From: Polyangiaceae bacterium
Lineage (GTDB): Bacteria > Myxococcota_A > Polyangia > Polyangiales > Polyangiaceae
NCBI GenBank assembly: GCA_016715885.1
Contig: JADJXL010000022.1
Coordinates: 139,588 to 203,587, forward strand
Direction: 5' to 3'
Length of the DNA stretch: 64,000 nucleotides
Each line of letters opens with the position of its first letter. The first letter of the stretch is position 1. Positions 1,883 through 48,466 of the stretch are shown here, piece by piece. Both the position numbers and the translations under genes were made by a program. Under the pieces are notes generated by a model that did no database searches, was not told where the DNA came from, and saw nothing but the letters and a program-made list of their open reading frames with translations.

Positions 1883-1890
1883 CCCTAACG

Positions 1891-1925: not shown

Positions 1926-1987
1926 GCTCACTTCGATGCTTGCAATGAAGGATGTGTGCCCCGTTTCGACGAACGCGGCATGGAGGA

Positions 1988-8719: not shown

Positions 8720-11700
8720 TCAATCGAGACCGAGGCGGCTGCGCGCATCGCTGTATGCGTCGCTGACCGAGAATACGATGAGCTCGCGCGCCTCGGCATT
8801 TCGACCAATCCATGTGAGGCGCTCTTTGCCCGATGCCGGCGGTTGATTCGTATGACCACCGGCCCACGCAATGCCCGCGAGCGCGACATTGGGATCACCC
8901 ACGGCGAGAAGTCCCGCACGAGCCCCCCAACCATTGATGGCCGTATTGAGCGTCGATGCGCGATTGCCAATGCTGCCGATGACGTCCGTTGCGAGCGTAC
9001 GCACTTGCGGATCCACGTTTGCAGGCATTGCCTTGGCAATCTTGGCCGAAGCATCGGCAAGTTTGGCGGGGTCGACTCCTTGAGGCGAAAACGCCGTATT
9101 GAGCGCCTTCAGGTACGCTGCAAGCAGCGGCCAGAGGTCAATCGGCGCCGTTCGCGAGAATGCCGAAGCGTTCGTCTGAATCACCTTGAGCGCGCGGTGA
9201 ATCAAGAACGTACGTACCGCGGCATTTTCCGATGCGACGAGCGGTTGCCCGAGAACGATCGTTGCCGGGTGCGAGCTTGCCGGGACGCACACGGCTCCAA
9301 GGGCTGCCGATTGGTAGATTTTAACGTCGCCAATGCCATAAGCGCGAGCGATGGACTTGATTTCGTCCGCAAGCTCGGCTTGGGGCGGCGGCAAAGGCAT
9401 TCCACGCACCGAGGCAATATCGAACGTGACTGCTGAATCGAGCAGCGATCCGGTGCGTTGCAACAAATCGCGGAACGCCGGGGTCATGATGTCCGGTGCG
9501 AGCAAGTCATCGAGGGTCGCATCGCCCGCAGCTTCTCCTGCGCCGTTGATCTCGACCTCTGCACCATCGAGCGCCGCGACGCTTGCCCGCGCAATGCGCG
9601 CCTGCGCTGGTTTGCCCCGGAGCTCGGCAACCGTTGCTACGGTGCTGAACAAATACGGTTCGAATCGACCCGTACCGAGAGCTCGACGCGCATCTGCGAC
9701 GGCCCGTTCGAGAAGAACGTTTGCCGCCTGCGCTTGATCGGTGCGTTGATAGAAGCTGGCGAGCGCGTGAAGCGCCGTGTCGTCCTTGGGCCACGTCTTA
9801 CGGGCCTGAAGCAATGTTTGCTCGGCCTTCTTCGTGTCGCCCATCGCTTCGTAGATGGACGCAAGTCCCGTGGTCCTTCGGCACTTCGCCTCGGGATCCT
9901 CGACGTTGTTGATGAGGATCGTTTGCTGTTCGAGCGCCTTCGCGGTGTCGCCAGTCTTCTTGTAAAGCTCGACGAGTTTTTCCCGTGCCGCCTCGTTGTC
10001 GGGGAAGCGCTTCAGCACTTCCTGATAGGAAAGCTCGGCGCGTTCGGCATTTGGCAGCGGCCCATCGTAGAGCTCGCCGAGTCGCAAATAGAGATCCGAT
10101 TGACGCTCTGGTTCGGAGACCAAGCGCGCCAGGCGAATCCAGGCTTGCTCCGCGCCCTCCCAATCTTCCTCTTTCGCACTGACTTCGGCGAACGCCGAAA
10201 GCGCTTCGACGTGATCGGGATACTGCTCGAGTGCAGCAGCGAGCGCGCGTTTTGCAGCGCCCGCATCGCCGATGTCGGCAAGAGCGCGGCCGCGCATGAT
10301 CTCCATGTCGACACGTTCTGCCGGGTCGGTGATCGTCTCGAGACGTCGTTCGAGAAGTGCGGCGAGCTCGGCGCGAGCGTTCGTCGCGACGTACACGTCC
10401 TTCAAGCGCTGGAACACGTCGCGGTAGGACGGATCGGTCGAGAAGACATGTTCGAATGCGCCGCGCGCGCGTTCGCTGTCATTTGCTTTGTCCGCAAACA
10501 GAACGGCTGCCTTGTACAGGCCTTGCACGCGCTCTTCCGGCGTGATGCTCGTCTGCGCTGCAGCCTCGTACGATTCGGCTGCGTCTGCGAAGTTGCCGAG
10601 AGCTTCGAGGACGCGCGCTCGTTCGAGGTGCAGCACGAAATGGCTCGGCGTAGCTTCGATGGCTTTGTCGAGCAGCTCGCGTGCTTTTTCGAGGTTACCA
10701 GTACGCTCTGCCGATTCGGCCGCCCGAAGCGACAACGTTGAAACTTCCGAAGAGCGTTCCGTGCGCGCGGCCAGTTCGACGTCGACTTCGAGGGCCAGCG
10801 CTTCATCGCCACCCGCGCGTGCATGAGCTGCGGTTTGTCGCAGTGCCCAAATTCCGCGCGGCTGGTTTTTGTAGGCAACGTCGACCGCTTCGCGTGTGTC
10901 GTCCCAACCGCGGAGGCGCAAACGAAGACGGGCTGCGAGTTGTGCGTGCGCGATGGCTTCGGGCCCTTCGAGGGTCTTGGCCGTTGCGAACACCACGGGT
11001 TCGAGCTCTTCGTCGCGACCAGCAATGATGAGCGTGCTGGCGATGCGCCTGAGCGTTGGCAAGTGCGACGGTGCGCCTTCCAGAATCGCGCGACGCCAAA
11101 GGAGCGCGTTTCCGGGATCGTTTCGTCCGACTTCGTCGAGCTCCGCAAGGCGCTCGTAGGTTTCGAGTCGCTCGGTGGGATCTTCGGTTGCCTTTGCGTG
11201 CGCAAGCAGCGACTCGACGAGCTCGCCCGTGCCGTGGCCAGCGAGCGCCGTGCGGTACACGCATAGCGGCGCGAGCAGGTTTTCCCCGGCAAGCGTGGCT
11301 TGTTTCGCCATCACGGATGCATTGGCGAGGTCTCCGTCGCGTTCGTATTCGAGTGCTGCATCGAGCGCGCAGCGTGCGGCTTCGGCACCCGTCGATGCGG
11401 CTGCTCGTTCGGCGCGGAAAGCGGCACGATCGCTCGGCCTTTCCGGCGATAGACGCTCGAACAGCTCGCGCAGGCCGATGTCGTCAGGCCGCGCTTTGAG
11501 CGCGTGCGTGAGCAGACCCGTCGCGTGCCCCGCTCCCTCGGGCGTGATCAATGCCTCGCGCAGATAGTCGCGAGCTTGCTCGATCGGGTCTTCGCACGAT
11601 TCGCGACGTGCATGCAGCCATTCGATGAGTCCATCGCGATCTCCGGCCGAGCGCGCGATGCCTTCGCCGATGTGAATCGACAGGGGCATGTGCGGATCCA

Positions 11701-13645
11701 TTTCCGCGGCGCCTCGGAGAAGTTTGTCCCGCTCATCCTCGATTGTCGATCCAGGCGAATCGAGCTCGAGCAAGCGGTTGGCCGCTTCGGTGAGCACGAG
11801 TGCTGCACGCGTTCCTGGTTGCATCGATTGCGATAGCTCGGAAAGGATCGTCGCGGCTTCTGTCGGCTCGGCACTCGCCGCGGCTGCGCGGGCCGCTGCT
11901 TCGTGCGCGGAATCCGCTGCTCGTGCACGCGCGTAGCTTTCGTTTGCGAGTTTCGTGTTGCCCGCGAGCTCGGCGAGCAGTGCTGCTGCCAGCGCGCCGT
12001 CGCGGTCACCTTCGGCTTGCTCTCCACGCCATCCTGCGACTGCGTTGGCAATCTTGGCGCCCGCTTTTCCTTCGAGGTCGAGCTCGAGCGTGAGCGCACG
12101 ACCCGTTCCACTCTCGGGAACGAACTCCGTGTAACCAAGGATCGATGCTGCGAGCGCATCGTTCGACGTGAGGGGTTTGTCGTCGGCACGAAGCGCACCG
12201 AGAGCGCGACCAAGAGCCGCGCCGGCGCGAGCTGCCGTAGCACCGGCTCCGATGAGGTTCGTCGACGGGTTCTCGAGATCCCGCGTCACGGCGCTCGAAG
12301 CTGCAAGGAGCGGGATGAGATCGTCATCGCCCGCGGCTGCTTCGACGGCTTGTTCGAACACTTCGCGCGAGCCGCCCGTGAGGGCCGTGAGTGCAAGTCG
12401 ATCGCCCGCAGAGAACGCGATCGTGTCGCTGCCTTCGATCGCCGAGCGGGCTGCCTGCGCATCACCGAGCTCGATGGCGCGTGCTGCGAGCGCACGGCGC
12501 GCATCGGCGTCGTGTGTACCGTCGAGAGCTCCACGCAAGGCTTCGATCGCGTTGCCTCGCGTTTCCTTTCGTGCTGCCGCAAGCATGCTCGCGAGCCATC
12601 CCGCGCCGCCCTTGAGCGACGCGGCACTCTGCAATCGACCGAGCGTGGCGACGGCGGACGACACGTCGCCACTTTCGAGTGCTGCGCGCGCTCGGAGCAG
12701 CGCGTCGTACGTGGACACGACGTTGCGTACGCCGCGAGGAGCGTTGCCGCGATGGATGGACACCTTGGAGAAGGCGTCACGCAAGGCTGACAGGTCCTTC
12801 GTTTCCGGCGCGCGAACTTTCGTGAACGCGCTCGGATCCGTTGCATCTCCAAGCGCTTCGGTGAAGCGCTGCACGAAGGGACGCGGATCTGCCGCGTCCA
12901 CGCGCTGCGCAACGTCGAGCCGCTTCTTGGCGCCGTCGTCGTCCTCGAGCCGAACGCGAGCGATATCGGAGCCGAGCATCGCGGCGTGCGCGCGCGCTGC
13001 GTTCGTCGGCAAAACGCGCGCTTCGCTGTCGAGCACTTCGAGTGCACCTTGCCAGTCTTGGTCCCGCATGAGCAGGCCGCGAAGCTGATGGTGAGCAAGC
13101 GGCGAGCTTGGTGCGAGCGTGCGCACTTCGGCAGCAATGGCCCGGGCTGTTTGCTCTTCGCCAGCCATTGCATACAGCTCGCACACGGCCACGAGAGCTC
13201 GTGCGCGCGCCGCCTTGTCCTCGATGGCCTCGGCTTCCGCTCGAAGCCACGCAGCGCGTTCTGCCCACGCATCGCGTTGTTGCGTGCCGACCAGATGCGC
13301 CGACGCGTCCTGTTCGTCCGGGAACGATGGAGCGGCGTCCACTGCCTTGCGTTCGGGACGCGATGCAGGAGCTTCTTCTTCGATGAGATCGGCCCCATCG
13401 ATGGTTTCCTCGTCCGCCGCCATGCTCGCGTCCGCCGCAAGGAGCGCTTCGACCACGCCATCGGGCTGACGCATCGTCGTCTCTTCCTCGATGGCGTCGG
13501 CCTCGACTTCGGACGAACCTTCTTCGGCGGGCGGCGCACGCAACGCGCCGAGCAGCTCATCGGGTACTCGAGCCAATAGGGTCGCTTCGTTGTCGTCGTC
13601 GTCAGCAACGTTTGCGATGTCGAAATCGTCTTGGTGATCGCTCAC
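8720..13645 (-). CDS. Giant TPR-repeat protein (about 1640 aa) with an acidic N-terminal region and a C-terminal non-TPR domain of about 250 aa.
   Basis: A long ORF with pervasive TPR-like helical repeats rich in A, L, E and R. The proposed GTG start at 13645 lies 31 nt after the upstream stop and is preceded by GGAGCAAAGGA. The C-terminal domain is paralogous to that of the upstream giant TPR protein. Confidence 0.65.
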   Translation of the reverse strand: MSDHQDDFDIANVADDDDNEATLLARVPDELLGALRAPPAEEGSSEVEADAIEEETTMRQPDGVVEALLAADASMAADEETIDGADLIEEEAPASRPERKAVDAAPSFPDEQDASAHLVGTQQRDAWAERAAWLRAEAEAIEDKAARARALVAVCELYAMAGEEQTARAIAAEVRTLAPSSPLAHHQLRGLLMRDQDWQGALEVLDSEARVLPTNAARAHAAMLGSDIARVRLEDDDGAKKRLDVAQRVDAADPRPFVQRFTEALGDATDPSAFTKVRAPETKDLSALRDAFSKVSIHRGNAPRGVRNVVSTYDALLRARAALESGDVSSAVATLGRLQSAASLKGGAGWLASMLAAARKETRGNAIEALRGALDGTHDADARRALAARAIELGDAQAARSAIEGSDTIAFSAGDRLALTALTGGSREVFEQAVEAAAGDDDLIPLLAASSAVTRDLENPSTNLIGAGATAARAGAALGRALGALRADDKPLTSNDALAASILGYTEFVPESGTGRALTLELDLEGKAGAKIANAVAGWRGEQAEGDRDGALAAALLAELAGNTKLANESYARARAADSAHEAAARAAAASAEPTEAATILSELSQSMQPGTRAALVLTEAANRLLELDSPGSTIEDERDKLLRGAAEMDPHMPLSIHIGEGIARSAGDRDGLIEWLHARRESCEDPIEQARDYLREALITPEGAGHATGLLTHALKARPDDIGLRELFERLSPERPSDRAAFRAERAAASTGAEAARCALDAALEYERDGDLANASVMAKQATLAGENLLAPLCVYRTALAGHGTGELVESLLAHAKATEDPTERLETYERLAELDEVGRNDPGNALLWRRAILEGAPSHLPTLRRIASTLIIAGRDEELEPVVFATAKTLEGPEAIAHAQLAARLRLRLRGWDDTREAVDVAYKNQPRGIWALRQTAAHARAGGDEALALEVDVELAARTERSSEVSTLSLRAAESAERTGNLEKARELLDKAIEATPSHFVLHLERARVLEALGNFADAAESYEAAAQTSITPEERVQGLYKAAVLFADKANDSERARGAFEHVFSTDPSYRDVFQRLKDVYVATNARAELAALLERRLETITDPAERVDMEIMRGRALADIGDAGAAKRALAAALEQYPDHVEALSAFAEVSAKEEDWEGAEQAWIRLARLVSEPERQSDLYLRLGELYDGPLPNAERAELSYQEVLKRFPDNEAAREKLVELYKKTGDTAKALEQQTILINNVEDPEAKCRRTTGLASIYEAMGDTKKAEQTLLQARKTWPKDDTALHALASFYQRTDQAQAANVLLERAVADARRALGTGRFEPYLFSTVATVAELRGKPAQARIARASVAALDGAEVEINGAGEAAGDATLDDLLAPDIMTPAFRDLLQRTGSLLDSAVTFDIASVRGMPLPPPQAELADEIKSIARAYGIGDVKIYQSAALGAVCVPASSHPATIVLGQPLVASENAAVRTFLIHRALKVIQTNASAFSRTAPIDLWPLLAAYLKALNTAFSPQGVDPAKLADASAKIAKAMPANVDPQVRTLATDVIGSIGNRASTLNTAINGWGARAGLLAVGDPNVALAGIAWAGGHTNQPPASGKERLTWIGRNAEARELIVFSVSDAYSDARSRLGLD

Positions 13646-13676
13646 GGGCCCTGATCCTTTGCTCCAGAATCGCTGC

Positions 13677-16600
13677 TCACCGGACGCCCATGCCGAGCTT
13701 CTTGCGAAGCTCGAGATAGTTGGGCGAAAGCACGAACGAAAGCAGGCGCCGACCGCGCTCACTCTCGGGGATGGTCGAACCAAGCTGATCCCTCGGAATT
13801 CCGAGCAGATCACTCAGGACGATCGAAACATCGCCAGCGGCGATCACCGCCATGCGATCGAGGCTGCGCCGCGCAGCAGCAGCCCAAGCGCGCGCATCTT
13901 GCTTGCTGGAGACGATCTTCAAACACGTCTCCCCAATGCTCTTGCGCACTTTGCGCGAGATCTCTTTGTGCACCGCGCGCTGGATCTCGTTGTAGACCGC
14001 ATAACCGGGGTTGGCGATCTTGATGTCGACCTCGTTGCACGCCGCAATCACGACCGACGCGAGCGCCACTTCGTCGCGCGTTCGCAGCGAAATGATGCCG
14101 CGGCGCAACGCGAATACCGTACGCGCCACGGCCGAACGTGCGGCCGCATCGAAGGGCGCCGCAATCGCCGAACCCAGCACGATCGCTGGGACGTCTCCCG
14201 CAACTCCGCTCACGAGGTTTGGATTCGGACCGCCCACGTACAACTCGAAATCACCCTCGAACCCAACGGCTCCCATCCACTCGGCAACGGCAAGACGTAG
14301 CGGATGACCACCACGCGAATCGATACGCTCCTTCTTGCCTACGCCGAGCGTGCTGAGTGTCGGGCCAAGCGCGAGCGATACGGTCTCGGCCATCTGCACG
14401 AGCAGCTCGGCAATCGGACCACCATCTTCCGGATCGGCAATCTCCGCCATCGCCCTCGCGTCGAGCACGATCTGCGGACGAGCCGCCACGCGTGTGTCGA
14501 GTTTCTTGAGCTCCGATGAGATTGTCGTGTTGGAACGACCGAGTGAAACGAGGCATCCGAGCGTCGCCTGTCGCAACGCCAAGTCCTGCTCGAACTGCGC
14601 AATCTTCGCGAGCCGCTCGACCCGATCCGCATCGCAAGGATCCTCGGCGAGCTTGTTCAAGAGCACCGCCTTGGCGCGGCCGAGTAGGCGCTTCTGTAGC
14701 GACGCGTCGTAGTTGGTGGTCAGCACCATGTCGAGCGCTTCGCCGTCGTCGTTCGACTCGTCGAGCAGCTTCGTCACGGCCGCTTCTGCCTTCAGCGGTT
14801 CCTTGATCTTGTCCCGCCAGATGGCCATCGCGAGCCGCGCAGCCTCCATGCGACCTTCGCGCTTCTCACGCTCTTGCATGAGCTGTTCGAGGATCGCCGT
14901 CGCGCGTGACCACGCACCGGTGCGCGCTGCCACGCGTGCAAGACGTTCACGCACCGGAGGCGTGGACAAACCTGCTTCGTGCAGCCCAACGAGCACGTTG
15001 AGTGCCTTGTCCGGCGCGTTCAGCTTGTTCTCGTAAATGTCCACCGCCGCGACACCGGACATGAGCCGCTGCTGCGTCGGCGCTTCCTTGATCCTCGAGA
15101 GCCGCCCGAGATAATCCGCGGCGTCGCCGAACTTGCCCATCGTGATCGCAATCTCGCCCGACAGCGCGAGTGCGCCGACGTGATCGGGCTCGATCATCGT
15201 GACGTTCTCGAGTGCCGACAACGCTCCTTCGCGATCTCCCTTCTTGCGAAGCACGCGAGCGCGTTCCCAGAACAGCTTGCTGATCTCGACCTCGTCGTCG
15301 GCTACGTCGAGACGGCGGCTCATGATCTCGAGCAGCCGGTCGTCCTCGTTCCGCGCACGAACGCGTCGGAAAAGTTTGTCGAACGCAACCGATCGGCTCG
15401 GATCACGCTCGAATGCACGCGCAAACGAAATCTCGGCGTCGTCGTGCGCTTCGGTGTGCTCGAGCAAAATGAGACCGGCTCTCTCCCAGAATTCGGCGCC
15501 GCGAGCGTCATTGCTGCAGAGCGCGCCGAGCTGCGCGTAGGCGAGCGCCGTCGAGATGTGATCACCGAGCGCCTCGCTTGCCGAACGCACGCCTTCCCAC
15601 GACACGAGGTCATCGGGACGCCGTTCGACGGCAGCGCGGAACGTGGCCAATGCCGCTTCCGTGTTGCCCGATGCAAGCTCGGACCAACCCGCCAAGGCCG
15701 CTGCATCGTTCGAAGCGTCTTCGCCCAACGCTTCGCCAACGTTTTTCAAGGCAAACGCTCGGCGCCGCGGATCGCAACCCGGCAATGACAGGTCCAGGTT
15801 CGTCAAGCGCGTCTTCGCGGACGTACCGGCAAGCAGCGGTTGCGGCATGCTCGGCTGATCCAGCGTTGCCACGATCGACGCGGACGACTCCATCGCAGCC
15901 CAGGGTTCGTCCCCAAGGAACGACGCCACCGCACGCCGCGCAGACACCTCGGCTTCACGATCCTTCGCCGCAAGTGCAGCGCCGAGCCATTCCAGCGCCA
16001 CGTACAGCTTCGGTTCCGCACTGGCCCACGACGCCGCGCGACCCACCGTCGCCGCAACGTCCTGATCGATCGTCCGCGCGATGCGGAATCGTTCCGCACG
16101 CGCGATGGCCGTCGCTTCGTCACCCTGATCCTCGAGGCGATCGAGCGCTCGTTCGATCGCTTCTCGATCCGTCAGCGCATCCGGCCAGCAAAGCCGAGCC
16201 AAACCCGCCGCGACCGTGATGTCGCCCGAACCATCCGCTTCGGCGCGTTCGAGTGCGACGAGCGCTTCGCCGCGATCACCCGCTTCGCCCGAACCAATTT
16301 CCAAACCAAATCGCTCGAGCGCAATGCTCGCCGGATCCGCACCCGTTTCGAGCGCTGTTGCGAGCGCGCGGCGACGACCGTCGAGACTGTCGGGATCGGC
16401 TCCGCGCAGCGCCCACGCAAGCACCGCCGAAGCCGCCTTTGCAGCACTGCCGCGAGCTTGCTCGAGCAGGTCCAGCGTCTTGGCTCGATCACCGAGTCGC
16501 CACGAGAGAAGCGCAGCCTCGATGTAGAGCGCTGCGCCCAAGTCGATGTCGTCGGTTGCCGTTGCACATGCGGCGAGCACCGTGGACGCGGCCGCGAGGT

Positions 16601-18443
16601 TCTCCCCGCGCTGTTCGAGATCCGCGAGGAATATCGCGACGACCTCGTCTCCCGGTGCAGCTTCGTGAAGCTCCCGCAACCGAGCGCGCGCACGTTCGAT
16701 GTCGCCCGTTCGAGCGCTACGAAGCGCCGCGACGACCCACAAGCCACGCGCCAAGTTCGCGTCCGATTCGACGCTCGCCAGCGCTTCGATCGTCTCGGGC
16801 GTCGCACGATACGCAGCTTCGCCCGGCGCCGTTTTCTTGATGCCCAGCGCGTACGCCCCGAGCACTCGACCAAGCCAGCTCGAACCCGTGTCACCGTCGC
16901 TTTCGAGCGCTGCGAGCTTGGCAAAAGCTTCGCCGGCACCCGCTACGTCACCACGCAGCGAACGGCTGCGGCCCACCTCGAACCACAAGCTCGCAACCTC
17001 GCCAGGTTCCGCACCAGCCGCGAGGAGATCCGCCGTTGCTTGCTCGTACCACGCGCTGTCCTTGCGAATCGACGCAAGCATGCGGGCAACCCGCGCGATC
17101 ACGGCAGGGTTCGTCCCGAGCGTTGCGGCTCGCGCGAGCGCTGCTTTGGCCGCATCCGTGTCGCTCGCATTCGACGCCCACACGTATGCAGCAACGAGCG
17201 CCGCGCGAATCTTGCTGTCATTCGTCGGGCAAACTTCACCCGCCGCTTCGAGCGACTTGGCGAGCGCCGAAGGATCTTGCGCATCGCTCAAAAGATCGAG
17301 CTCGAGCGCACGAGCCATGATGGACGCAGGGTCCGCTTCGAGCGCGCTACGCAGAGCCGCGAGCGCACCGTCTCGATCGTTGTCGAGCATGGCGGCTTCG
17401 GCAATACGCAGCCAAAGCGCTGCCGCACCGGGACCCACTGCGCCTCGGTCGAGCTCTTCTCGTGCAAGCGCTGCCGCACCCTTCGCATCGCCCATCGTTT
17501 CCAGCGACGACAAACGCGCTCGAGCAATGACGGACGACTGCGGAAGTTGCTCGGCAGCACGCGCAAGCAGCTTTACCCACGCATCGTGATCTCCTGCCCG
17601 ACGCTTGATCTCCGCACATCGCAGCCACGCATCCGCTGCGCACTCGGGCCGCCGTGCCCATCGCGGAACGCCATTCGCATCTCCGCGTTCGGGTTCGGCA
17701 ATCGCCTCTTCGATGAGCTCCGCTTGGCCTTCGAGGGCACGCGACAGAACGGACGCGTTTTGATCTCGGATCGCGATGGCTTCGAGCGCCTGTTGCGAAC
17801 GGAATCGGCCGTGGCCTTCGAGCGCTGCGGCGGAATCGATGAGATCGTAACCTCGTTGCGCGTCACCCGACTTCGCAGCGAGCTCCGCAAGCTCGATGAA
17901 AAGAAACGCTTTCCACGTGGCGTCCGTCGCAAGCTCCGCCCGCGCTTCGATGGCGCGCATCCGTCCGGCGAGGTCGTTTTCTTTCGCCGCAAGCAGCTCC
18001 AGCTCGAGCCACGGCGTCGGATCCTCGGGATTGGCACTGACGGCTTCTTCGAGCGCCTCTTTCGCCCCTGCAAGATCTTGCTCGTAATCCTGCAAGTACG
18101 CGGCTCGCTCCCAAAACGCGCGCGTGCGTTCCTCCGGCGTCGCCGCTGCGCGCGTGAGCGCGTCGAGCAGCTTGCCCAGGTTTTTGATGGACTTGCGTCG
18201 GGTCAAGATCCGAACGAGCGCCTCGAGCGGCTCACGGAACTGAGGGTCGGCATTGAAGGCCGCGAGATAATCGCGGGCCGCCGCCGGCTCTTCTCCATGC
18301 CGTTCTTCCAGCACGCCGCTTTCGTGAAGAAGCAAGGCCTGTAACGCCTTGTCCTCCTGTGCGGCGGTCTCGGATCGTAGTCGGTTGAGCAAGGCCGCCG
18401 CATCCTCGGCGGGCCCCGTGGGGGTGGATGTCTCTACCGTCAT
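13677..18443 (-). CDS. Giant TPR-repeat protein (about 1590 aa), paralogous in architecture to the downstream gene.
   Basis: A long ORF with TPR-like repeats throughout. The C-terminal about 250 aa (ELYVGGPNPNLVSGVAGDVPAIVLGSAIAAP...) aligns with the C-terminus of the 8720-13645 protein. The start is placed at the ATG at 18443 and is uncertain. Confidence 0.65.
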   Translation of the reverse strand: MTVETSTPTGPAEDAAALLNRLRSETAAQEDKALQALLLHESGVLEERHGEEPAAARDYLAAFNADPQFREPLEALVRILTRRKSIKNLGKLLDALTRAAATPEERTRAFWERAAYLQDYEQDLAGAKEALEEAVSANPEDPTPWLELELLAAKENDLAGRMRAIEARAELATDATWKAFLFIELAELAAKSGDAQRGYDLIDSAAALEGHGRFRSQQALEAIAIRDQNASVLSRALEGQAELIEEAIAEPERGDANGVPRWARRPECAADAWLRCAEIKRRAGDHDAWVKLLARAAEQLPQSSVIARARLSSLETMGDAKGAAALAREELDRGAVGPGAAALWLRIAEAAMLDNDRDGALAALRSALEADPASIMARALELDLLSDAQDPSALAKSLEAAGEVCPTNDSKIRAALVAAYVWASNASDTDAAKAALARAATLGTNPAVIARVARMLASIRKDSAWYEQATADLLAAGAEPGEVASLWFEVGRSRSLRGDVAGAGEAFAKLAALESDGDTGSSWLGRVLGAYALGIKKTAPGEAAYRATPETIEALASVESDANLARGLWVVAALRSARTGDIERARARLRELHEAAPGDEVVAIFLADLEQRGENLAAASTVLAACATATDDIDLGAALYIEAALLSWRLGDRAKTLDLLEQARGSAAKAASAVLAWALRGADPDSLDGRRRALATALETGADPASIALERFGLEIGSGEAGDRGEALVALERAEADGSGDITVAAGLARLCWPDALTDREAIERALDRLEDQGDEATAIARAERFRIARTIDQDVAATVGRAASWASAEPKLYVALEWLGAALAAKDREAEVSARRAVASFLGDEPWAAMESSASIVATLDQPSMPQPLLAGTSAKTRLTNLDLSLPGCDPRRRAFALKNVGEALGEDASNDAAALAGWSELASGNTEAALATFRAAVERRPDDLVSWEGVRSASEALGDHISTALAYAQLGALCSNDARGAEFWERAGLILLEHTEAHDDAEISFARAFERDPSRSVAFDKLFRRVRARNEDDRLLEIMSRRLDVADDEVEISKLFWERARVLRKKGDREGALSALENVTMIEPDHVGALALSGEIAITMGKFGDAADYLGRLSRIKEAPTQQRLMSGVAAVDIYENKLNAPDKALNVLVGLHEAGLSTPPVRERLARVAARTGAWSRATAILEQLMQEREKREGRMEAARLAMAIWRDKIKEPLKAEAAVTKLLDESNDDGEALDMVLTTNYDASLQKRLLGRAKAVLLNKLAEDPCDADRVERLAKIAQFEQDLALRQATLGCLVSLGRSNTTISSELKKLDTRVAARPQIVLDARAMAEIADPEDGGPIAELLVQMAETVSLALGPTLSTLGVGKKERIDSRGGHPLRLAVAEWMGAVGFEGDFELYVGGPNPNLVSGVAGDVPAIVLGSAIAAPFDAAARSAVARTVFALRRGIISLRTRDEVALASVVIAACNEVDIKIANPGYAVYNEIQRAVHKEISRKVRKSIGETCLKIVSSKQDARAWAAAARRSLDRMAVIAAGDVSIVLSDLLGIPRDQLGSTIPESERGRRLLSFVLSPNYLELRKKLGMGVR

Positions 18444-18591
18444 TGGGCTCGCAGCGCCTCTCGCGAACACGGGTTGCTGATGAAGTGCATTCCGCGACGC
18501 GCAGACTAACGAAACGCGCTGTCGAGAGTAAAGCCTCGTCCGCACGGATCGGGCGAACGGTATCTTTCGGTACTTCGCAGGTGACGCTCCG

Positions 18592-19194
18592 TCACTCGAT
18601 CCGCTGAACGATCCAATACCCTCGCGGCGTGTCCACAGGCTCGCTCACGCCACCCTTCGGTAGACTGAACAGCACGTATTCCGGCGCGGGTTCGAGCACT
18701 CCGCGCGGCAGCCGTCCGGCATTTTCCATCGACCCCTTGTCGCCTTTGGCCACGGCCGCCTTGAAGTCGGTCTTGGCAAGCTCGGCGAGCTCCTTCGCGA
18801 GCTCCAGCGCAGCCTCGCGAGAACGCGCAGTCGCCGGCACCCGAGCCGCACCAGGCGCCCCTTGCGCCCCGCGATACGTCACGAGAACGACGCCGAACAC
18901 CACGGACTTCGGCGCATCCGCCGCCAAACCTGGCGGCGCTTCACCCGATAACAAGAGCGTTCCACCAGCATCTGCTTGCTGCGCCGGATCGATCTCGCCC
19001 GATGGTTCTGCCGCCGTGTCGGCGTCCGTTGTCGCTGCATCCAGATCGACGACGTCCGCATCGGATGCGTCCGACGCGCCCGCGTCTGCTGCTACCGAGC
19101 CCACGGATGCCCCACGACGATCCGCGGGGAAAATCACGAGCGCAAGAGCCCCGAGCACCAGCGTGGCGAAGAAGAGGGCGGTCCATTTCTGCAT
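18592..19194 (-). CDS. PpiC/parvulin-type peptidyl-prolyl cis-trans isomerase with an N-terminal membrane anchor.
   Basis: There is an N-terminal TM helix (WTALFFATLVLGALALVIF). The C-terminal parvulin signature is PRGYWIVQRIE, preceded by a SurA/PrsA-like helical segment. Confidence 0.6.
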   Translation of the reverse strand: MQKWTALFFATLVLGALALVIFPADRRGASVGSVAADAGASDASDADVVDLDAATTDADTAAEPSGEIDPAQQADAGGTLLLSGEAPPGLAADAPKSVVFGVVLVTYRGAQGAPGAARVPATARSREAALELAKELAELAKTDFKAAVAKGDKGSMENAGRLPRGVLEPAPEYVLFSLPKGGVSEPVDTPRGYWIVQRIE

Positions 19195-19427
19195 GTGGCC
19201 GAGCGCGTTAGCACATTTCTCACGATGCGCGAAAGCGCAGCACGACATGCTCCCCACATCCTGGCCCCAACAGCGTCGCAAAAGAGCAATGCGCCCAAAA
19301 CCCTGATAGAAGGGGAAGAAGAATTTCAGACGATAGGTGCCTCATCCCGTGCCGAGCTCTTGTCGATCCTGGTGCATCGACGTCGCGCAAGGGCTGATGC
19401 GCCGTTCTCTTCATTCAGGGCGCGAGC

Positions 19428-22400
19428 ATGATCAACGTCCAGTGCGACGGATGTAAATCTCCCTACCAGGTCGATGAGCGGCGAGTCCCCGCATCGGGGC
19501 TCAAAATGCGTTGCTCCAAGTGCGGCAACTCGATCTTGGTGGAGAAGCCGACGGTGGATCTTGCGGGACGGAGCGATCTGCCCGTCCCCGCGTCACCACG
19601 ACCGAAGGGCGTCGCGCCCGTTTTTCCTCGCGGCCCGGTCCTTCCCAAACAAGGCCTTCCAACGCCCAAAGCCGTGGTTCCAACGACGCCGGAAAAAGCT
19701 GCGCTCGCTTTCGCGCGCGGCGAAGGCAGTCGTTTCGACATCCCCGCGATGGATGATGACGCTCTCGCCGAGCTCGATCTGCCGTCGCCCGCAACGTTGG
19801 TTTCAAAAGAAAAACCCGTTGCAGTCGCGATGGATCCGCTTGCGGACGAAGGCATTCGCGCATCCGACCGACCTACGGCTCCGCGCGCCGTCGATGAAGC
19901 AAGCGTGTTCGATCGAATCACGAGCGACGACCATCGCAGGCCGTCCGAACGACCAACGGCCCCGCACCTTCCCGCCGTTGCCGTTCCCAAAACGAGCGTC
20001 ACCAAAGCTGCCGAGCGTGATGTCGACGTGCCGCCTCGAGGCAAAGCCACGGTGCGCCAAATGGCTGCGGTGATACCCGATGAAATGGCCCTCGATCTGC
20101 CTGCGCTCGCGCCGTCACGCGACGCCATCGCTCCTCCATTGCCGCAACCCAATCGTTCGGCCGCGGAGCTTTCTGCCGCTGGGACAAACCCGTCGGCACG
20201 CGACGCGAACAAGGCCGAGCTTCCATCTCCCGCGCGCCCACCAGCAAAACGCACGCTCGAGATCGACCTTCCGGATACAGGGCTGCCCATCGACGAAGCA
20301 GCAATGGCCTTCGGCGAAATCGACCTGCCTGCCACCGTGCCTGCGCATGCAGGAGCCAAGGGCTTTGGCGCGATCGGCTTGGCCGCTCCCGCGCCGCCTC
20401 GTGAACCGGCCAAGTCGTTCGGAGAAATCGATCTTCCCGCGGTCCCTGCACCTTCGCCATCCAAGTCCCCGGCTCCGGCGATGAAATCCCGCCCGGGCAA
20501 CGCCGATCTACCCGTTCTGAGCGACGCGGCATTCGGCGAAATCGACCTACCTGTTCCCGACGTTGCGACGTCCGACGACGGCGGGTTTGGCGAATTCGAA
20601 CTTCCTGCTCCCGAAGCCGACGCGTCCTTCGGCAAGCTCGATCTTCCGCTTCCGGTCGGACAGAGCGGCGAACATCAGTTCCCGCCTGCAGCCAAACCAG
20701 CGACGACCGCCAGCGCTGTCGCCGCGTTTTCCGTGCTTGGCGACCTCGAGCTGCCGCTGACGAGTGAATCGTCGATGAACCTCAGCGCGGTCGTGCTGCC
20801 GCCATCCAAGCCGGCAAGTCCTGCGCTCGACTTCGCGCTCGATGAATTGTCGCTGGATGCGCCCGCGTCGAAGCCGAAAGCGCCGAGCGATGCGACGCGG
20901 CAATCCATGCCATCCATACCGGGCGAAGAGTTTTCCCTTGGTGTGCAAACGAATAACACGCCTTCACCGGGGCCGAGCAAGGGCACGGACATCACGGGCG
21001 GTATCGGCGACGAAGTGGAGCTCGGTGTTGGCGATGCCGGTGCAGCGGATGCCGCAGCTCGGAAAGACAAACCTGCCAAAGGTGGTCGTCAAGATGCTGC
21101 GCCCGCTCCTGCAATGAGCCGCAAAGAGCGGTTGCGACGGCGTGCCCTCACCATGGGGATCGCCGTGCTCGTTGCCGTCGGCGGAGGATCCCTCGCGCTC
21201 CTGCCCGACATCGGTCCTTTTGGCATCTATGCCATCACCGACACCATCAAGGCCGATGATCACGCTCGAGCCCTCATGCAGCTCGAAACCAACGTTCAAA
21301 CGATGCTCGACGAGGACACTGCGGGCAGTGCCGCTCGTGCATTGACCACGGCCAAAGCCGCGCAGATCAACTTGCCGCGACATCGAGCGACCGCAGCGTA
21401 TACGGCCTACGTCGCTTTCCTCAGCAGCATTCGCCATGGACCGCGCGCAAGCGACGAGACGTTCGGCAAACAGTTGCTCGAGTTCGTCGCGGATACACCG
21501 AGCCGTGAACGCATGCTCGCGGTCGCGGCGAAACACAAGGCTGCAAACAAGCTCGAAGCCGCCAGGCGCGTTGTCAAAGACGCCGGCGGGCCGCAATCGA
21601 AGGACATCGATACCCTCGCGCTCATCGGGGAGATCGAGCTTGCCGCGGGCATGAAAGAAGACGCGCTCGCCGTGTGGAAACACGCGGTTTCGCTGCGGGA
21701 AAAGAGCGCCAGAGCGCTCTTCGGGCTCGCACGCGCGCAGCATGCCGCCGGTGACTTCAATGCAGCAGAAAAGAACGCTCGCGCAGTCATCGAGGTGTCC
21801 CCCAAACACGCCGGCGCTCGCATTTTACTCGCCACCATCATTGGTCGATTTCCAACCACCGAAGGAGAAGCCATCGCCCTCTTGAGCAAAGTGACGGATC
21901 AAGGCGAAGTGCGCACTGCGACGAGCGAAGGCCAAATCGTGCAAGCCTTCATCGAAGCTGGTCGTATCCATTTGCTCCGTTCACGTGTCTCCGCCGCGGC
22001 CGATGCGTTTGCCGAGGCCCTCAAGATGGATCCGCGCAACGTGCAAGCTCTGATTGGCGACGGCGAGCTCTTCTTCCGATCGGGCCGCAATTCACAAGCC
22101 CTGCTTCGATTCGAAGAAGCCATGCGCGCCGACGATACGAGCATTCCGGCAAAGGTCGGGGCGATCAAAACCCTTCTCGCGCTCGAACGCATGAAGGACG
22201 CCAAGGATCTCGCGAAAAAGATCCGCGAAGCAAAACCTGAATTGTCCATTGGCGCGTATTGGCTCGGCCGCGTCGAAGAAGCGCTTGGCAGCAAAAAAGA
22301 CGCCGAAACGCTCTACCTCGAGGCAATCAAGCTCGGCGGCAGCGATTCGGACATCGTCGATGCCTACGTTTCTCTCGTCGCACTCCTGTCGTCGGTTGGT

Positions 22401-23570
22401 CGAGCTGAAGAGGCGCAAGCCAAACTTGCCGAGGCCAGCGCCAAGTATCCCGACCTCGCCGCACTCCATCGCGCCAAGGGTGAGGTGCTCTCGGAAGCCG
22501 GCCGCTATGCCGAAGCTCGCGCGGAATTCGAGGCAGCTCTTGCAAAAGAGGACGACCTTGGAACACGCTTTCGTCTCGGCGTGACGCTCCGCCGCATGCG
22601 CCTCTTCGAAGAAGCAATGGGCGTGCTCGACAAACTCCAGACCGCCGACAAGGATTATCCGGGCCTGGCGCTCGAACGAGGCATCCTTTATGCAGAAATG
22701 GGGCAAAGCGAACGGGCCCTCGAGATGTACGCCGCAGCGCTCGAAAAAGCGCCCAACGACGTCGACCTCAAGCTCCGCGTAGGATCGACGCAGGTCATTG
22801 CTGGACACCCCGACGAAGCAGAAAAAATCCTACGCGAAGTATTGAAAGATCGGGCCGCGTCCGCAGATGCCAATCACTTCCTCGGTCGGGCCCTGCTTCT
22901 CAAGGGTGGAAGCGCGGCCGAAGCCATTCGGTTTTTGGATCGCGCCACCGAAATCGATGCCAATCGCGCCGAATATTACCTGTACGTTGGCTGGGCTGCG
23001 AACGAGCTCAATCAAGTTCAGCGCGCCGAACAAGCCATCCAACGCGCCCTGGAGCTAGACCGGGAGCTTGCCGACGCTTATTGGCAACGAGCCATTCTCT
23101 ATCACAAACAAGGCCGAACGCTCGATGCGCTCGCGGATCTCCAGGTCGCCCTGGCAAAACGGCCGTCACGCTATGAAGCGTATGCCACGATGGCGCTTTG
23201 TTATCAGGACCAGGCGCGCTGGCCCGATGCAACCGCCGCGTGGATCAAAGCGATCGAGGGCAATGGATCCATCGCGGAATGGCATTATCGCCTGGGCAAA
23301 ATCTACGAAGGCAATGGCAATCGCGCGGCCGCCGCGCCCGAGCTCGACAAAGCCGTCGAGCTCGTCGAGGCGAAACCGAATATGTCGCAATCGTGGCATT
23401 TCGACCTGTATTTCCTTTACGGTGAAACCATGCAAGCCACCGGGCAAAAGGAAAAAGCCCTCAAAGGCTACAAACGATACCTGCAGCTCGCACCCGTCAA
23501 CAATGCCTATCGGCCCGATGCCGAGCGAGCCATCAAACTCCTCGAACCACGGGGCCCTGGGTCACACTGA
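19428..23570 (+). CDS. Protein with an MJ0042-type zinc ribbon, a Pro-rich linker carrying a repeated [F/L]GE[I/L]DLP motif, a single TM helix and a long TPR domain. The architecture resembles GltJ/AgmX.
   Basis: The N-terminus is MINVQCDGCKSPYQVDERRVPASGLKMRCSKCGNS (CxxC..CxxC). About 450 aa of Pro/Ala-rich low-complexity sequence follow, with at least six FGEIDLP-like motifs. A TM helix (LTMGIAVLVAVGGGSLALL) precedes more than 700 aa of TPR repeats. Confidence 0.7.
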   Translation: MINVQCDGCKSPYQVDERRVPASGLKMRCSKCGNSILVEKPTVDLAGRSDLPVPASPRPKGVAPVFPRGPVLPKQGLPTPKAVVPTTPEKAALAFARGEGSRFDIPAMDDDALAELDLPSPATLVSKEKPVAVAMDPLADEGIRASDRPTAPRAVDEASVFDRITSDDHRRPSERPTAPHLPAVAVPKTSVTKAAERDVDVPPRGKATVRQMAAVIPDEMALDLPALAPSRDAIAPPLPQPNRSAAELSAAGTNPSARDANKAELPSPARPPAKRTLEIDLPDTGLPIDEAAMAFGEIDLPATVPAHAGAKGFGAIGLAAPAPPREPAKSFGEIDLPAVPAPSPSKSPAPAMKSRPGNADLPVLSDAAFGEIDLPVPDVATSDDGGFGEFELPAPEADASFGKLDLPLPVGQSGEHQFPPAAKPATTASAVAAFSVLGDLELPLTSESSMNLSAVVLPPSKPASPALDFALDELSLDAPASKPKAPSDATRQSMPSIPGEEFSLGVQTNNTPSPGPSKGTDITGGIGDEVELGVGDAGAADAAARKDKPAKGGRQDAAPAPAMSRKERLRRRALTMGIAVLVAVGGGSLALLPDIGPFGIYAITDTIKADDHARALMQLETNVQTMLDEDTAGSAARALTTAKAAQINLPRHRATAAYTAYVAFLSSIRHGPRASDETFGKQLLEFVADTPSRERMLAVAAKHKAANKLEAARRVVKDAGGPQSKDIDTLALIGEIELAAGMKEDALAVWKHAVSLREKSARALFGLARAQHAAGDFNAAEKNARAVIEVSPKHAGARILLATIIGRFPTTEGEAIALLSKVTDQGEVRTATSEGQIVQAFIEAGRIHLLRSRVSAAADAFAEALKMDPRNVQALIGDGELFFRSGRNSQALLRFEEAMRADDTSIPAKVGAIKTLLALERMKDAKDLAKKIREAKPELSIGAYWLGRVEEALGSKKDAETLYLEAIKLGGSDSDIVDAYVSLVALLSSVGRAEEAQAKLAEASAKYPDLAALHRAKGEVLSEAGRYAEARAEFEAALAKEDDLGTRFRLGVTLRRMRLFEEAMGVLDKLQTADKDYPGLALERGILYAEMGQSERALEMYAAALEKAPNDVDLKLRVGSTQVIAGHPDEAEKILREVLKDRAASADANHFLGRALLLKGGSAAEAIRFLDRATEIDANRAEYYLYVGWAANELNQVQRAEQAIQRALELDRELADAYWQRAILYHKQGRTLDALADLQVALAKRPSRYEAYATMALCYQDQARWPDATAAWIKAIEGNGSIAEWHYRLGKIYEGNGNRAAAAPELDKAVELVEAKPNMSQSWHFDLYFLYGETMQATGQKEKALKGYKRYLQLAPVNNAYRPDAERAIKLLEPRGPGSH

Positions 23571-26146: not shown

Positions 26147-27285
26147 TGCACATCCCCCCGCGTGACTTCCAGGAAGATTCGCTCGAGCTCGTTACGTTCG
26201 GGCTCGACGCCCACGATGCCAATACGTTGATGCACCAAGTGCTGAACCATTTCGGCGATTTTCGTTTCGGTGCCCGTGTACCCGACGTGCACGACGCCCC
26301 CGATGATGCTGACTTCCACGATGCCCGGCCCGCCTCGAAGCAAGTACGCCGCTTGTTCCGGATTGCCGATGACGCGGAGTTTTACGCGACGCACCGCCGG
26401 AGCCGCCGGTACCGGTGGCTGCCACGCTGCTTGTTGCGAAGGCTGCGCGGGATATCCCGGCGGCGCGCCTGGTTGCGCTGTCGGAGGAGCCACGCGCGCT
26501 GCGCCCGTGTATGCAGGCGGAGGCGCGTGCCCCATTGCCTCGGCCGCTCGAATGGCTTCCAGGCGCGACGAAATTTCGTGAATGGGCCCAGCCACCACGA
26601 GCCGTCCTTTTTCCAAAATGCCAATCGATGTACAAACATCCGACAATTCCGTCAAGATGTGTGACGAAAGCAAAATGGTTTTTCCCAGCCCTCGCAGCTC
26701 CAAGAGCAAATCCCGTATCTCGATACGCGCCCGCGGGTCGAGATCGCTCGCCGGTTCGTCCAGAATGAGCACCTTCGGATCGTGCAAGAGAATCCGAGCA
26801 AGCTGAAGCCTCTGCTTCATGCCTTTCGACATTTCCGCCACGAGACGATCCTGAAGTTTGCCGAGGTCGGTCAATTCGAGCACCGCGTCGACGACGTTGA
26901 TCGAGGGAACTCGAAATGCGTCCGCGAAAAACTCGAGATACTCGCGCACCGTGATCCGATCGTAAACGCCGGCATGGTCGGGCATGTATCCAATGATTCG
27001 GCGGACTTCCTCCGGATCCATCGTCACGTCGATGCCGTCGATTTCCACGCGGCCCGCCATTGGTTCGAGCAGCGTCGCCATCACGCGAATCGTCGTGGTT
27101 TTTCCGGCTCCGTTCGGGCCGATGAAACCAAAAATTTCCCCCGGCCCCACGTCGAACGTCACGTCGCGCAAAACGTCACGATTGCCATAACGATGCCACA
27201 AATGACGCACTCGAATCGTCGGCGGCGGAAGAGGCGCAGAAGGCTCGGGCGATTCAATCTGGACCGCGCTCGACGCTTCGCTCAC
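26143..27285 (-). CDS. ABC transporter ATP-binding protein with a Pro-rich C-terminal extension.
   Basis: Walker A is GPNGAGKTTT. The ABC signature is SKGMKQRLQLAR. Walker B is ILILDEPASDLD. The proposed GTG start overlaps the upstream stop (GTGA at 27282-27285). Confidence 0.75.
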   Translation of the reverse strand: MSEASSAVQIESPEPSAPLPPPTIRVRHLWHRYGNRDVLRDVTFDVGPGEIFGFIGPNGAGKTTTIRVMATLLEPMAGRVEIDGIDVTMDPEEVRRIIGYMPDHAGVYDRITVREYLEFFADAFRVPSINVVDAVLELTDLGKLQDRLVAEMSKGMKQRLQLARILLHDPKVLILDEPASDLDPRARIEIRDLLLELRGLGKTILLSSHILTELSDVCTSIGILEKGRLVVAGPIHEISSRLEAIRAAEAMGHAPPPAYTGAARVAPPTAQPGAPPGYPAQPSQQAAWQPPVPAAPAVRRVKLRVIGNPEQAAYLLRGGPGIVEVSIIGGVVHVGYTGTETKIAEMVQHLVHQRIGIVGVEPERNELERIFLEVTRGDVQ

Positions 27286-48443: not shown

Positions 48444-48466
48444 TTCCCACCGAAGTTCGTCCCTAC

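Follow-up and report, generated by a model that had tools for sequence, protein, structure and literature searches.

The four-gene module at positions 8720–23570 of the 64-kb stretch of DNA analysed here (the window) probably builds a GltI/GltJ-like scaffold that spans the inner membrane. This scaffold would be paralogous to the cytoplasmic platform of the Agl-Glt machinery and distinct from the gliding machine itself. We regard it as a cousin of the inner platform of that machine because it combines GltI-related giant proteins, which carry a dead protease-like domain, with an adaptor in the membrane and a foldase in the periplasm. Among the large components of the focal-adhesion gliding machine of Myxococcus, GltI is the one least understood. 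Its C-terminal domain (CTD) now defines a family, comprising GltI and the two giants A and B of the module, with a catalytically dead M48-like peptidase fold and invariant arginines. This fold gives a concrete idea of the role of the domain, namely peptide or motif binding. GltI-type scaffolds occur outside glt clusters too: Polyangiaceae possess a second, strictly conserved GltI-type pair, together with a different zinc-ribbon adaptor that bears a multivalent array of linear motifs.

Layout and conservation of the module

A parvulin, giant A (1588 aa) and giant B (1641 aa) are encoded on the minus strand. A protein of 1380 aa with a zinc ribbon, a linker, a transmembrane (TM) helix and a TPR domain, referred to as the adaptor, is transcribed divergently. 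The features are located in the window as follows.

8720–13645, minus strand: giant B, 1641 aa (open reading frame and start site; GTG start preceded by an AAGGA motif)
8723–9697, minus strand: CTD of giant B, ~325 aa, M48-like zincin fold without HExxH
13677–18443, minus strand: giant A, 1588 aa (open reading frame), a TPR array followed by a GltI-type CTD
13680–14669, minus strand: CTD of giant A, 330 aa
18592–19194, minus strand: PPIase of the parvulin type, 200 aa, anchored in the membrane or secreted; its gene opens the operon
19195–19427, no strand: intergenic region separating the parvulin-A-B operon from the divergent adaptor gene (from the gene coordinates), presumed site of a shared promoter
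19428–23570, plus strand: bitopic adaptor, 1380 aa, with cytoplasmic zinc ribbon, disordered motif-bearing linker, one TM helix and periplasmic TPR domain
19428–19547, plus strand: MJ0042-type zinc ribbon, residues 1–40, of the same type as in GltJ and ZitP (TIGR02098 and PDB matches)
19764–20756, plus strand: motif array in the cytoplasmic linker, 7 strict FGEIDLP-type and about 6 looser (D/E)LP sites
21144–21215, plus strand: single TM helix, residues 573–596 (Kyte-Doolittle scan; flanking RKERLRRR)
21225–23567, plus strand: periplasmic TPR domain, about 780 aa (many TPR families above Pfam cutoffs)

The two adjacent giant TPR proteins described in the initial annotation are indeed present at these positions. 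The same annotation placed a membrane-anchored parvulin behind them; residues 1–24 of the parvulin form a hydrophobic N-terminal anchor, but in order of transcription its gene is the first of the operon and does not follow the giants, with which it is co-transcribed. The protein exceeds the Pfam cutoffs (given in brackets) of Rotamase (PF00639, 31.4 bits [21.7]), Rotamase_2 (PF13145, 30.5 bits [27]) and Rotamase_3 (PF13616, 23.0 bits [22.5]) and is a putative PPIase.

Gene A lies directly upstream of gene B at all 70 loci with sufficient flanking sequence, and the parvulin gene was found at 64 of 68 such loci. The complete four-gene order, with the adaptor gene on the opposite strand upstream of the operon, was observed at 57 of the 64 Polyangiaceae loci with enough flank. 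The outer flanks differ between loci and conservation ends at the four genes; the module is conserved and self-contained in Polyangiaceae. Orthologues of giant B are full-length, with 40–90% identity across the family.

Giant B is built up from an acidic, disordered N-terminus, a TPR/α-solenoid array (TPR_19, TPR_16 and TPR_14 exceed the Pfam cutoffs) and the GltI-type CTD. Giant A likewise contains a TPR array (Pfam) on the N-terminal side of its CTD. Neither a TM segment nor a signal-peptide-like N-terminus was found in either giant, and both are predicted to be soluble, cytoplasmic proteins. A BLASTP comparison of their TPR regions resulted in 26% identity (E = 3e-9); judged by sequence, A and B are paralogues.

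The C-terminal domain of the giants and of GltI

A common non-TPR C-terminal domain of about 250 aa had been claimed for both giants. We could confirm the domain, although it comprises ~330 aa. It was not detected by BLASTP, whereas a profile-profile comparison with hhalign, employing profiles built from 76 (A) and 81 (B) orthologue sequences, yielded a probability of 95.8% and an E-value of 8e-9 over 295 collinear columns. Pfam and NCBIfam contain no model for this domain.

GltI (AgmK, MXAN_4863 of Myxococcus xanthus) was recovered as the giant open reading frame directly upstream of gltJ at 40+ clean metagenomic gltI-gltJ loci. There, reading frames of 3105–3633+ aa are followed by gltJ; at locus L106 the downstream gene is validated as gltJ by NCBIfam, as it matches the GltJ equivalog model NF033761 with 595 bits (cutoff 450) over model positions 1–671. 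Size and position of the recovered frames agree with MXAN_4863 and MXAN_4862 (GltJ, AgmX). The CTDs of A and B match the CTD of GltI with an hhalign probability of 96% and an HMM score of 63 bits (E = 4e-12 at a database size of 1.8e9). The identity is only about 15–20%, with 13 near-invariant columns common to all three. By these profile comparisons, the ~330-aa domain of A and B is homologous to the domain that terminates genuine GltI, and A, B and GltI constitute three paralogous families. The TPR regions also match GltI in BLASTP, with E-values down to 1e-16 (B) and 5e-11 (A), although such repetitive sequence is weak evidence of relatedness.

Like A and B, GltI consists of a giant cytoplasmic TPR array joined to this CTD, but it is a single polypeptide of 3100–4132 aa, whereas the module has two paralogues of ~1600 aa with one CTD each. 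Because GltI has one CTD and no internal copy of it, A and B are not two halves of a split GltI, as had been suggested initially.

The CTD has an M48-type zincin fold in which the HExxH metal-binding and catalytic motif has been lost. Its core consists of a backing helix, a three-stranded sheet and an "active-site" helix, as in the M48/M56 peptidases (HtpX, BepA, Ste24/ZMPSTE24, BlaR1) and the minigluzincins. The whole 330-aa domain, which contains extra helical elaborations, gave no Foldseek match. HExxH is present in 2 of 76 A orthologues, in none of 81 B orthologues and in 1 of 141 representatives, and the columns conserved across A, B and GltI include no His, Glu or Cys. The conserved polar residues are four arginines, invariant or nearly so, one Asp and one Ser; an invariant Arg is located on the helix after the sheet. 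In contrast to the M48/M56 peptidases, the domain has no candidate metal ligands and is cytoplasmic and soluble. BepA, like the giants, joins an M48-type domain to TPRs, and active CTDs would make the module a BepA-like, cytoplasmic, TPR-guided quality-control protease system. In view of the rarity of HExxH and the conserved columns free of His, Glu and Cys, we consider this extremely improbable.

The membrane-spanning adaptor

The divergent protein contains all elements ascribed to it in the initial annotation: MJ0042 zinc ribbon, Pro-rich linker, single TM helix and large TPR domain (Pfam, TIGR02098, Kyte-Doolittle). The zinc ribbon scores 40 bits with Zn_ribbon_4 and 30–31 bits with TIGR02098 (cutoff 20.9). 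Among solved structures its best match is the zinc ribbon of GltJ (PDB-entry 7zok, E = 6.7e-7). It also matches PDB-entry 2nb9 (E = 5.6e-4), which we take to be ZitP. The linker of 530 aa is Ala/Pro-rich and disordered, and the motif array reported for it is real: [FL][GA]x[ILVF][DE]LP occurs seven times, compared with 0.0006 occurrences expected from 20,000 shuffles of the linker. The array is conserved in orthologues, since most of the recovered linkers contain 1–10 copies of FG[ED][IVL][DE]LP. The positively charged cluster RKERLRRR is located on the N-terminal side of the TM helix, so the adaptor is predicted to be oriented with its N-terminus in the cytoplasm.

The domain order had been equated with that of GltJ, which proved wrong. 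GltJ contains no TPR; its zinc ribbon is followed by a linker, a GYF domain, a TM helix, a periplasmic segment that is disordered and a tail resembling a TonB CTD (PMC11761067, PMC11135422), and the ribbon binds a short motif within the linker of the same protein (PMC11135422). Both proteins share an N-terminal MJ0042-type zinc ribbon, an N-in single-pass topology, a long cytoplasmic region that is disordered and contains a short, conserved (D/E)(L/V)P motif, and a gene next to a GltI-family gene. In the adaptor, however, this motif is repeated 7–13 times, a periplasmic TPR domain of 780 aa is present, and both the GYF domain and the AgmX/PglI TonB-CTD-like tail are missing. In agreement with the initial annotation, no GYF or GYF_2 match was found in the adaptor (Pfam, E ≤ 0.01); a genuine gltJ fragment at locus L083 carries GYF_2. 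The GYF domain of GltJ binds a proline-rich sequence of AglZ. The TonB-CTD-like domain NF033768 is absent among the best 25 of 26 NCBIfam matches of the adaptor, while GltJ of L106 reaches 78.6 bits as a control. The C-terminus is TPR, for which the only matches among these 25 are the generic PrsT, MamA, PilW, Tgl and GltE, all below cutoff. On NF033761 the adaptor scores 24.2 and 25.6 bits (cutoff 450), with residues 5–40 alone being matched. The likeness to GltJ is thus limited to the 36-residue zinc ribbon and the membrane topology. We rejected an identification as GltJ on the basis of the zinc-ribbon-only match, the missing GYF domain and TonB-like tail, and the periplasmic TPR domain foreign to GltJ.

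GltJ orthologues contain a conserved GLL[DE][LV]P ~50–60 residues before the TM helix, which resembles the GxI[DE]LP repeats of the adaptor. In the common form G-x-hydrophobic-(D/E)-(L/V)-P the motif occurs in 7–13 copies in the adaptor and once, conserved, in GltJ just before the TM helix.

Hubs of the HubP and FimV type combine a periplasmic domain and a TM helix with a cytoplasmic region that is long, acidic and rich in Pro and contains repeated motifs. To our knowledge, myxobacteria do not possess PopZ. ZitP of Caulobacter, a PopZ-binding polarity factor (PMC11135422), has a zinc ribbon of the same structural type as the adaptor; outside this ribbon neither ZitP nor the hubs are related to the adaptor in sequence. 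All three proteins resemble the adaptor in being bitopic, with a long cytoplasmic region whose repeats or motifs recruit partners; their periplasmic domain is LysM or a DUF instead of TPR. The module might accordingly be a hub for envelope biogenesis or polarity with no relation to motility, with the CTD as an old, reusable protein-binding domain and the adaptor as a landmark. The hub-like architecture, the match to 2nb9, the periplasmic TPR domain together with the parvulin, which suggest a role in envelope assembly, and the confinement of conservation to the four genes are in line with this idea. We nevertheless judge it unlikely, as the only characterised protein with this CTD, GltI, is a motility scaffold and the module is not linked to genes of cell division, polarity or secretion.

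Relation to the gliding machinery and proposed function

The initial annotation had proposed a Glt-like complex and called for a check of the flanking genome for glt/agl genes. The giants are indeed GltI-like beyond generic TPR similarity, whereas the adaptor is not GltJ. Of the two findings named as jointly contradicting the proposal, i.e. no specific homology and no glt/agl synteny, only the second was obtained. The 64-kb window contains no glt or agl genes and no MotA/TolQ, ExbD/TolR, TonB_C, FHA or OmpA-like match. No MotA, ExbD, TonB or FHA appears in the Pfam lists for the annotated flanks of two related loci (L001 and L002), and glt/agl genes are likewise missing from these flanks. Since no motor (aglRQS) or outer-membrane glt genes lie beside the module, a mechanical role is unsupported.

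As noted initially, a GltI-family gene beside the gene of a bitopic zinc-ribbon protein echoes the adjacency of gltI and gltJ. However, in the G1 (gltD-J) cluster gltI directly precedes gltJ, while the adaptor gene is divergent from the giants: neither gltJ downstream of the giants nor gltD-H nearby was found in the window or at related loci, which places the module outside any gltD-H cluster.

The published GltI homologues of Sorangium So ce56, sce2920 and sce2921, lie within its glt cluster; for this strain homologues of GltC, D, E, F, G and I are listed and none of MXAN_4862 (Luciano et al., Table S3). The So ce56 orthologues of the module are found at 0.86–0.89 Mb, with other neighbours than sce2920 and sce2921. 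The reading frame of the A orthologue cannot exceed 1637 aa and is shorter than sce2920 (1774 aa); directly upstream of it lies the zinc-ribbon-TPR gene and not an FHA/GltG gene. Judging from gene positions and incompatible frame lengths, the giants are apparently not orthologues of MXAN_4863.

These data also bear on the possibility that Polyangiaceae have, in this module, their own form of the cytoplasmic and inner-membrane platform of the gliding machine, acting in trans with glt/agl genes elsewhere and with the adaptor in place of GltJ. The homology to the GltI CTD, the GltJ-type zinc ribbon, the resemblance between GLL[DE][LV]P and the linker repeats, and the So ce56 glt cluster devoid of a GltJ homologue argue for it. 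But So ce56 already has two GltI homologues in that cluster that are not module genes, no glt/agl gene was seen near the module in the window or in the annotated flanks of L001 and L002, the known contacts of GltJ run through its GYF domain and TonB-like tail, neither of which the adaptor has, and at 82 related loci GltJ matches arise through the zinc ribbon alone, with no GYF or TonB-like-tail match. We therefore assign a low probability to this alternative.

For the favoured paralogous scaffold we propose the following arrangement. A and B, kept together at every locus examined, would form a heteromeric platform beneath the membrane and dock multivalently on the linker motifs of the adaptor, either via TPR grooves or via what remains of the substrate cleft in the dead zincin domain. 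The periplasmic TPR domain, helped by the parvulin, may engage periplasmic or outer-membrane partners. Through this docking and these contacts the module would couple a cytoplasmic assembly to the envelope, by analogy with what has been proposed for GltI, GltJ and GltG; GltI is regarded as a scaffold in the cytoplasm and is predicted to bind GltG and GltJ at their cytoplasmic domains (PMC11761067). The output could be motility-related or another envelope or polarity process.

A bolder version, which we hold to be distinctly unlikely, treats the module as a trans-envelope apparatus in its own right, so far unrecognised in Polyangiaceae, that follows the logic of the bacterial focal-adhesion platform, with G-x-hydrophobic-(D/E)-(L/V)-P as the general docking signal for the dead-protease CTD of all GltI-family scaffolds. 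If the motif had this function, the module would reveal how GltI is tethered to the membrane complex.

At present, the genes of the module are annotated under names such as "TPR protein", "YciM", "BcsC" and even "SbcC".

Gene layout and conservation of the module

The module comprises four genes at 8720-23570. Three of them, encoding a parvulin and the giant TPR proteins A and B, are read in that order on the minus strand; the fourth encodes the adaptor, a protein with an N-terminal zinc ribbon (ZnR) and a C-terminal TPR domain, and diverges from them.

Genes of the module in window coordinates
18592-19194, minus strand: parvulin, 200 aa, N-terminal hydrophobic anchor; first in transcription order
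13677-18443, minus strand: giant A, 1588 aa; second in transcription order
8720-13645, minus strand: giant B, 1641 aa, GTG start; 31 nt after giant A
19428-23570, plus strand: ZnR-TPR protein (adaptor), 1380 aa; divergent from parvulin-A-B across a 233-bp gap

According to Pfam and NCBIfam, TPR families score over cutoff in both giants, the 200-aa protein contains a rotamase domain, and the adaptor carries an MJ0042/Zn_ribbon_4 zinc ribbon (residues 3-36) together with ~780 aa of TPRs. A hydropathy scan found no transmembrane (TM) segment in A and B, one anchor in the parvulin and a single TM segment in the adaptor (residues 573-596), directly preceded by RKERLRRR. The ZnR and a 530-aa Ala/Pro-rich linker are therefore placed in the cytoplasm and the TPR domain in the periplasm. 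The protein sizes, gene order and topology described in the initial annotation all agree with the ORFs, domain matches and hydropathy. A GC3-based gene filter carried no information at this base composition.

A Polyangiaceae MAG encodes a protein with 100% identity to giant B, and full-length orthologues with 40-90% identity occur in many MAGs as well as in Polyangium, Sorangium, Chondromyces and Minicystis. When one genome was scanned for each GTDB species, 137 relatives were found; the best 80 are all from Polyangiaceae or Polyangiales. To assess synteny, 82 related loci were searched by tblastn with the proteins of the window, and only loci with enough flank were counted. A lies directly upstream of B in 70/70 loci, the parvulin is present in 64/68, and the ZnR-TPR gene keeps its position and its opposite orientation in 57/64. 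The genes that flank the module in the window (HAD hydrolase, M36 peptidases, GT2) are retained only in close Polyangium relatives, so that the four genes form the unit.

Orthologues of giant B are publicly annotated as YciM, BcsC, NlpI or 'predicted Zn-dependent protease', and as 'Exonuclease SbcC' in Minicystis rosea; it appears that all of these names were carried over on TPR similarity and mislead. In one locus (L001) the stop codon of A overlaps the start of B. Two contigs of a single MAG (CAYTJL01; L019 and L049) each carry an A-B pair at an equal identity level. Either the pair is truly duplicated or the co-assembly contains redundant strains.

A C-terminal domain shared by A, B and GltI

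Both giants end in a ~330-aa C-terminal domain (CTD). BLASTP aligned A and B over one TPR stretch only (26% identity, E 3e-9) and yielded no alignment between their last 300 residues. The relationship of the CTDs is thus invisible to BLASTP and requires profile methods. Profiles built from the C-termini of 76 A and 81 B orthologues are collinear over 295 columns (hhalign 95.8%, E 8e-9).

AlphaFold2 predicted both CTDs with confidence (A: pLDDT 93.6, pTM 0.91; B: pLDDT 90.0, pTM 0.90). The structural matches of the A model are HtpX (7.2), projannalysin (7.0) and the M48 structure 3c37 (6.3), together with BlaR1, BepA and Ste24. The B model matches HtpX (10.6; 90/101 residues at 2.1 Å), BepA (8.6), 3c37 (8.2) and BlaR1 (7.3), and further ZMPSTE24, Ste24 and M32 carboxypeptidases. 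A Foldseek search of the PDB with the A model gave nothing significant, with BepA merely at E=2, and phmmer found no PDB match for the B CTD. Judging from the models, the zincin-like part of the 330-aa CTD is only a core of ~90-160 residues, and the full domain is elaborated. The HExxH motif is found in 2 of 76 A orthologues, in none of 81 B orthologues and in one of 141 representatives. That these CTDs, with peptidases among their structural matches, are an active protease is very unlikely; on the predicted fold, we consider it established that the CTD is M48-like and catalytically dead.

No Pfam or NCBIfam model covers the CTD; the sole Pfam match at E<=10 was a chance-level HMGL-like hit in the B CTD. 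A homologue search with the A CTD returned short metagenomic fragments only, without full-length or named relatives. An exhaustive CTD profile search gave 2705 clusters at 50% identity; where cluster members were listed, the only name was 'Polyangiales bacterium'. Among the best 150 of these clusters, the 141 with retrieved sequences comprise 81 A-type and 60 B-type, and none of these 141 was of GltI type. In four representative proteins (P0280, P0300, P0319 and P0321) the A-type CTD is internal (e.g. residues 684-995 of 2297 aa); these resemble fusions of A with B, or genes merged during calling.

For the recovery of GltI (AgmK) we used as a probe the 36 ZnR residues of GltJ (AgmX) printed in a published alignment. 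The probe hit short metagenomic fragments only, with no full-length or named relatives; their contigs were usable. Two contigs with gltJ were retrieved, both ridden with frameshifts. The gene preceding gltJ ends in a stretch that matches the A/B domain profile with 23 bits; a frameshift-corrected reconstruction reaches 40.6 bits, compared to 9.7 bits for the best of 2000 shuffles. Scanning metagenome contigs with this reconstruction yielded 48 loci, most of them with the domain in one frame. In ~40 of the 48 an ORF of 3105-3633+ aa terminates in the domain, and a gene starting MRFVCDSCRAQYMISDDKVG... follows after 100-180 nt. At locus L106, NF033761 identifies this following gene as GltJ over its full length (595 bits), and the giant upstream of it is therefore GltI. 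The GltI-like character proposed earlier for A and B is thereby supported.

The CTD occurs once in GltI, which has no internal copy of it. This makes A, B and GltI three paralogous families, each built as [TPR array]-[CTD]. The initial annotation had regarded A and B as paralogous halves of a split giant; this was rejected since GltI lacks an internal CTD copy, as was the converse, GltI as a fusion of A and B, given its single CTD. The C-terminal domain of GltI is, on the predicted structures, an unannotated pseudo-zincin family, which we add as a further finding; a search of the available literature returned no paper tying AgmK or GltI to peptidase terms.

A 31% relative of the GltI CTD (L132) was set aside as too frameshifted. 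On a 2.3-kb metagenome contig, L133:71-1651 encodes a 526-aa protein (P0128) with an N-terminal FHA domain joined to the last TPRs and CTD of A type (62% identity), and the start of a B-type gene overlaps its stop. The FHA domain of GltG is a predicted binding partner of GltI. For this reason P0128 may be a meaningful fusion, or else a chimera produced during assembly.

The adaptor compared with GltJ

As described in PMC11761067 and PMC11135422, GltJ consists of a ZnR (1-42), a linker, a GYF domain (138-222), a TM helix (385-405), a disordered periplasmic segment and a TonB-CTD-like domain. The order of ZnR, Pro-rich linker, TM helix and large TPR domain previously ascribed to GltJ is therefore incorrect. 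On the NCBIfam GltJ equivalog, whose cutoff is 450 bits, the adaptor scores 24-26 bits through its ZnR alone, and Pfam and NCBIfam detect neither a GYF domain nor an AgmX/PglI tail in it; its assignment as GltJ does not hold. Two GltJ proteins searched by tblastn against all 82 module loci matched the ZnR and nothing else. The best PDB match of the adaptor ZnR is the GltJ ZnR structure 7zok (E 6.7e-7), followed by 2nb9, which we take to be the ZnR of ZitP.

The motif array noted earlier in the adaptor linker was confirmed: seven strict [FL][GA]x[ILVF][DE]LP motifs are present, with 0.0006 expected in shuffles. Most recovered orthologue linkers, otherwise divergent, contain 1-10 copies of FG[ED][IVL][DE]LP. 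In GltJ, GLL[DE][LV]P is conserved ~50-60 residues before the TM helix in ~33/38 recovered orthologues (L085-L128; e.g. L106:11004-13133, residues 357-364) and, when 37 of these are aligned, forms an island within a variable stretch. This motif and the adaptor repeats have the pattern G-x-hydrophobic-(D/E)-(L/V)-P in common. From sequence, GLL[DE][LV]P may be related to the FGEIDLP repeats, which we regard as a lead. No mention of the GltJ motif was found in the accessible portions of PMC11761067 and PMC11135422. The MglA/ZnR-binding linker motif of GltJ (DEIGAVFDQV region) was also compared with FGEIDLP and rejected, as the resemblance was unconvincing.

Separation from the glt cluster and possible role

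Luciano et al. (2011, Table S3) list two GltI homologues for Sorangium So ce56, sce2920 (1774 aa) and sce2921 (2081 aa), within sce2914-2921 beside homologues of GltC, D, E, F and G, and no GltJ homologue. In So ce56 the orthologues of the module map to 0.86-0.89 Mb of NC_010162, with the parvulin and the ZnR-TPR gene upstream of A and B. The longest possible ORF for A is 1637 aa, shorter than sce2920. Based on ORF length and neighbours, the module genes and sce2920/sce2921 are different genes, and their equation was rejected. No MotA/TolQ, ExbD/TolR, TonB, FHA or OmpA-type genes are found in the rest of the 64-kb window. The proposal of a Glt machine was not sustained, as glt/agl-type genes are absent from the window and GltJ matches the 82 loci by its ZnR only.

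We regard it as established that the module is separate from the glt and agl genes and conserved in Polyangiaceae, with two cytoplasmic GltI-family giants, an adaptor composed of ZnR, motif array, TM segment and periplasmic TPR domain, and a periplasmic parvulin. We propose that A and B would form a heteromeric platform below the membrane. This platform may dock on the multivalent motifs of the adaptor, via the vestigial peptidase cleft or the TPR grooves, and the adaptor's TPR domain and the parvulin could couple it to periplasmic partners. Such coupling would parallel what has been proposed for GltI, GltJ and GltG. It is plausible, if rather unlikely, that the module acts in trans as part of Polyangiaceae gliding. 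Equally plausible, and given the same low probability, is a hub for polarity or the envelope that has no relation to motility.

Elsewhere in the window, two consecutive M36 (fungalysin) metallopeptidase genes occupy 2-6346 (plus strand), and the window begins inside one of them. With 1261 bits, the second (1464 aa) falls just short of the 1500-bit cutoff of the myxosortase-dependent M36 model. At 24410-29366 (minus strand) an ABC ATPase, which NCBIfam matches best to GldA, a gliding protein of Bacteroidetes (216 bits; cutoff 403 bits), is flanked by proteins of 578 and 694 aa, both without a Pfam or NCBIfam match. In the 82 related loci tblastn finds none of these three genes; GT2 alone of that neighbourhood is matched, in the two closest relatives. 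The gene at 32267-35890 (plus strand) encodes a STAND/NACHT-type NTPase of 1207 aa, in which neither effector nor sensor domains were recognised at E<=1e-5. A Bat/MoxR-type run at 45474-51598 (plus strand) comprises a DUF58 protein, a BatA-VWA protein and a 1043-aa VWA/GATase1-like protein.
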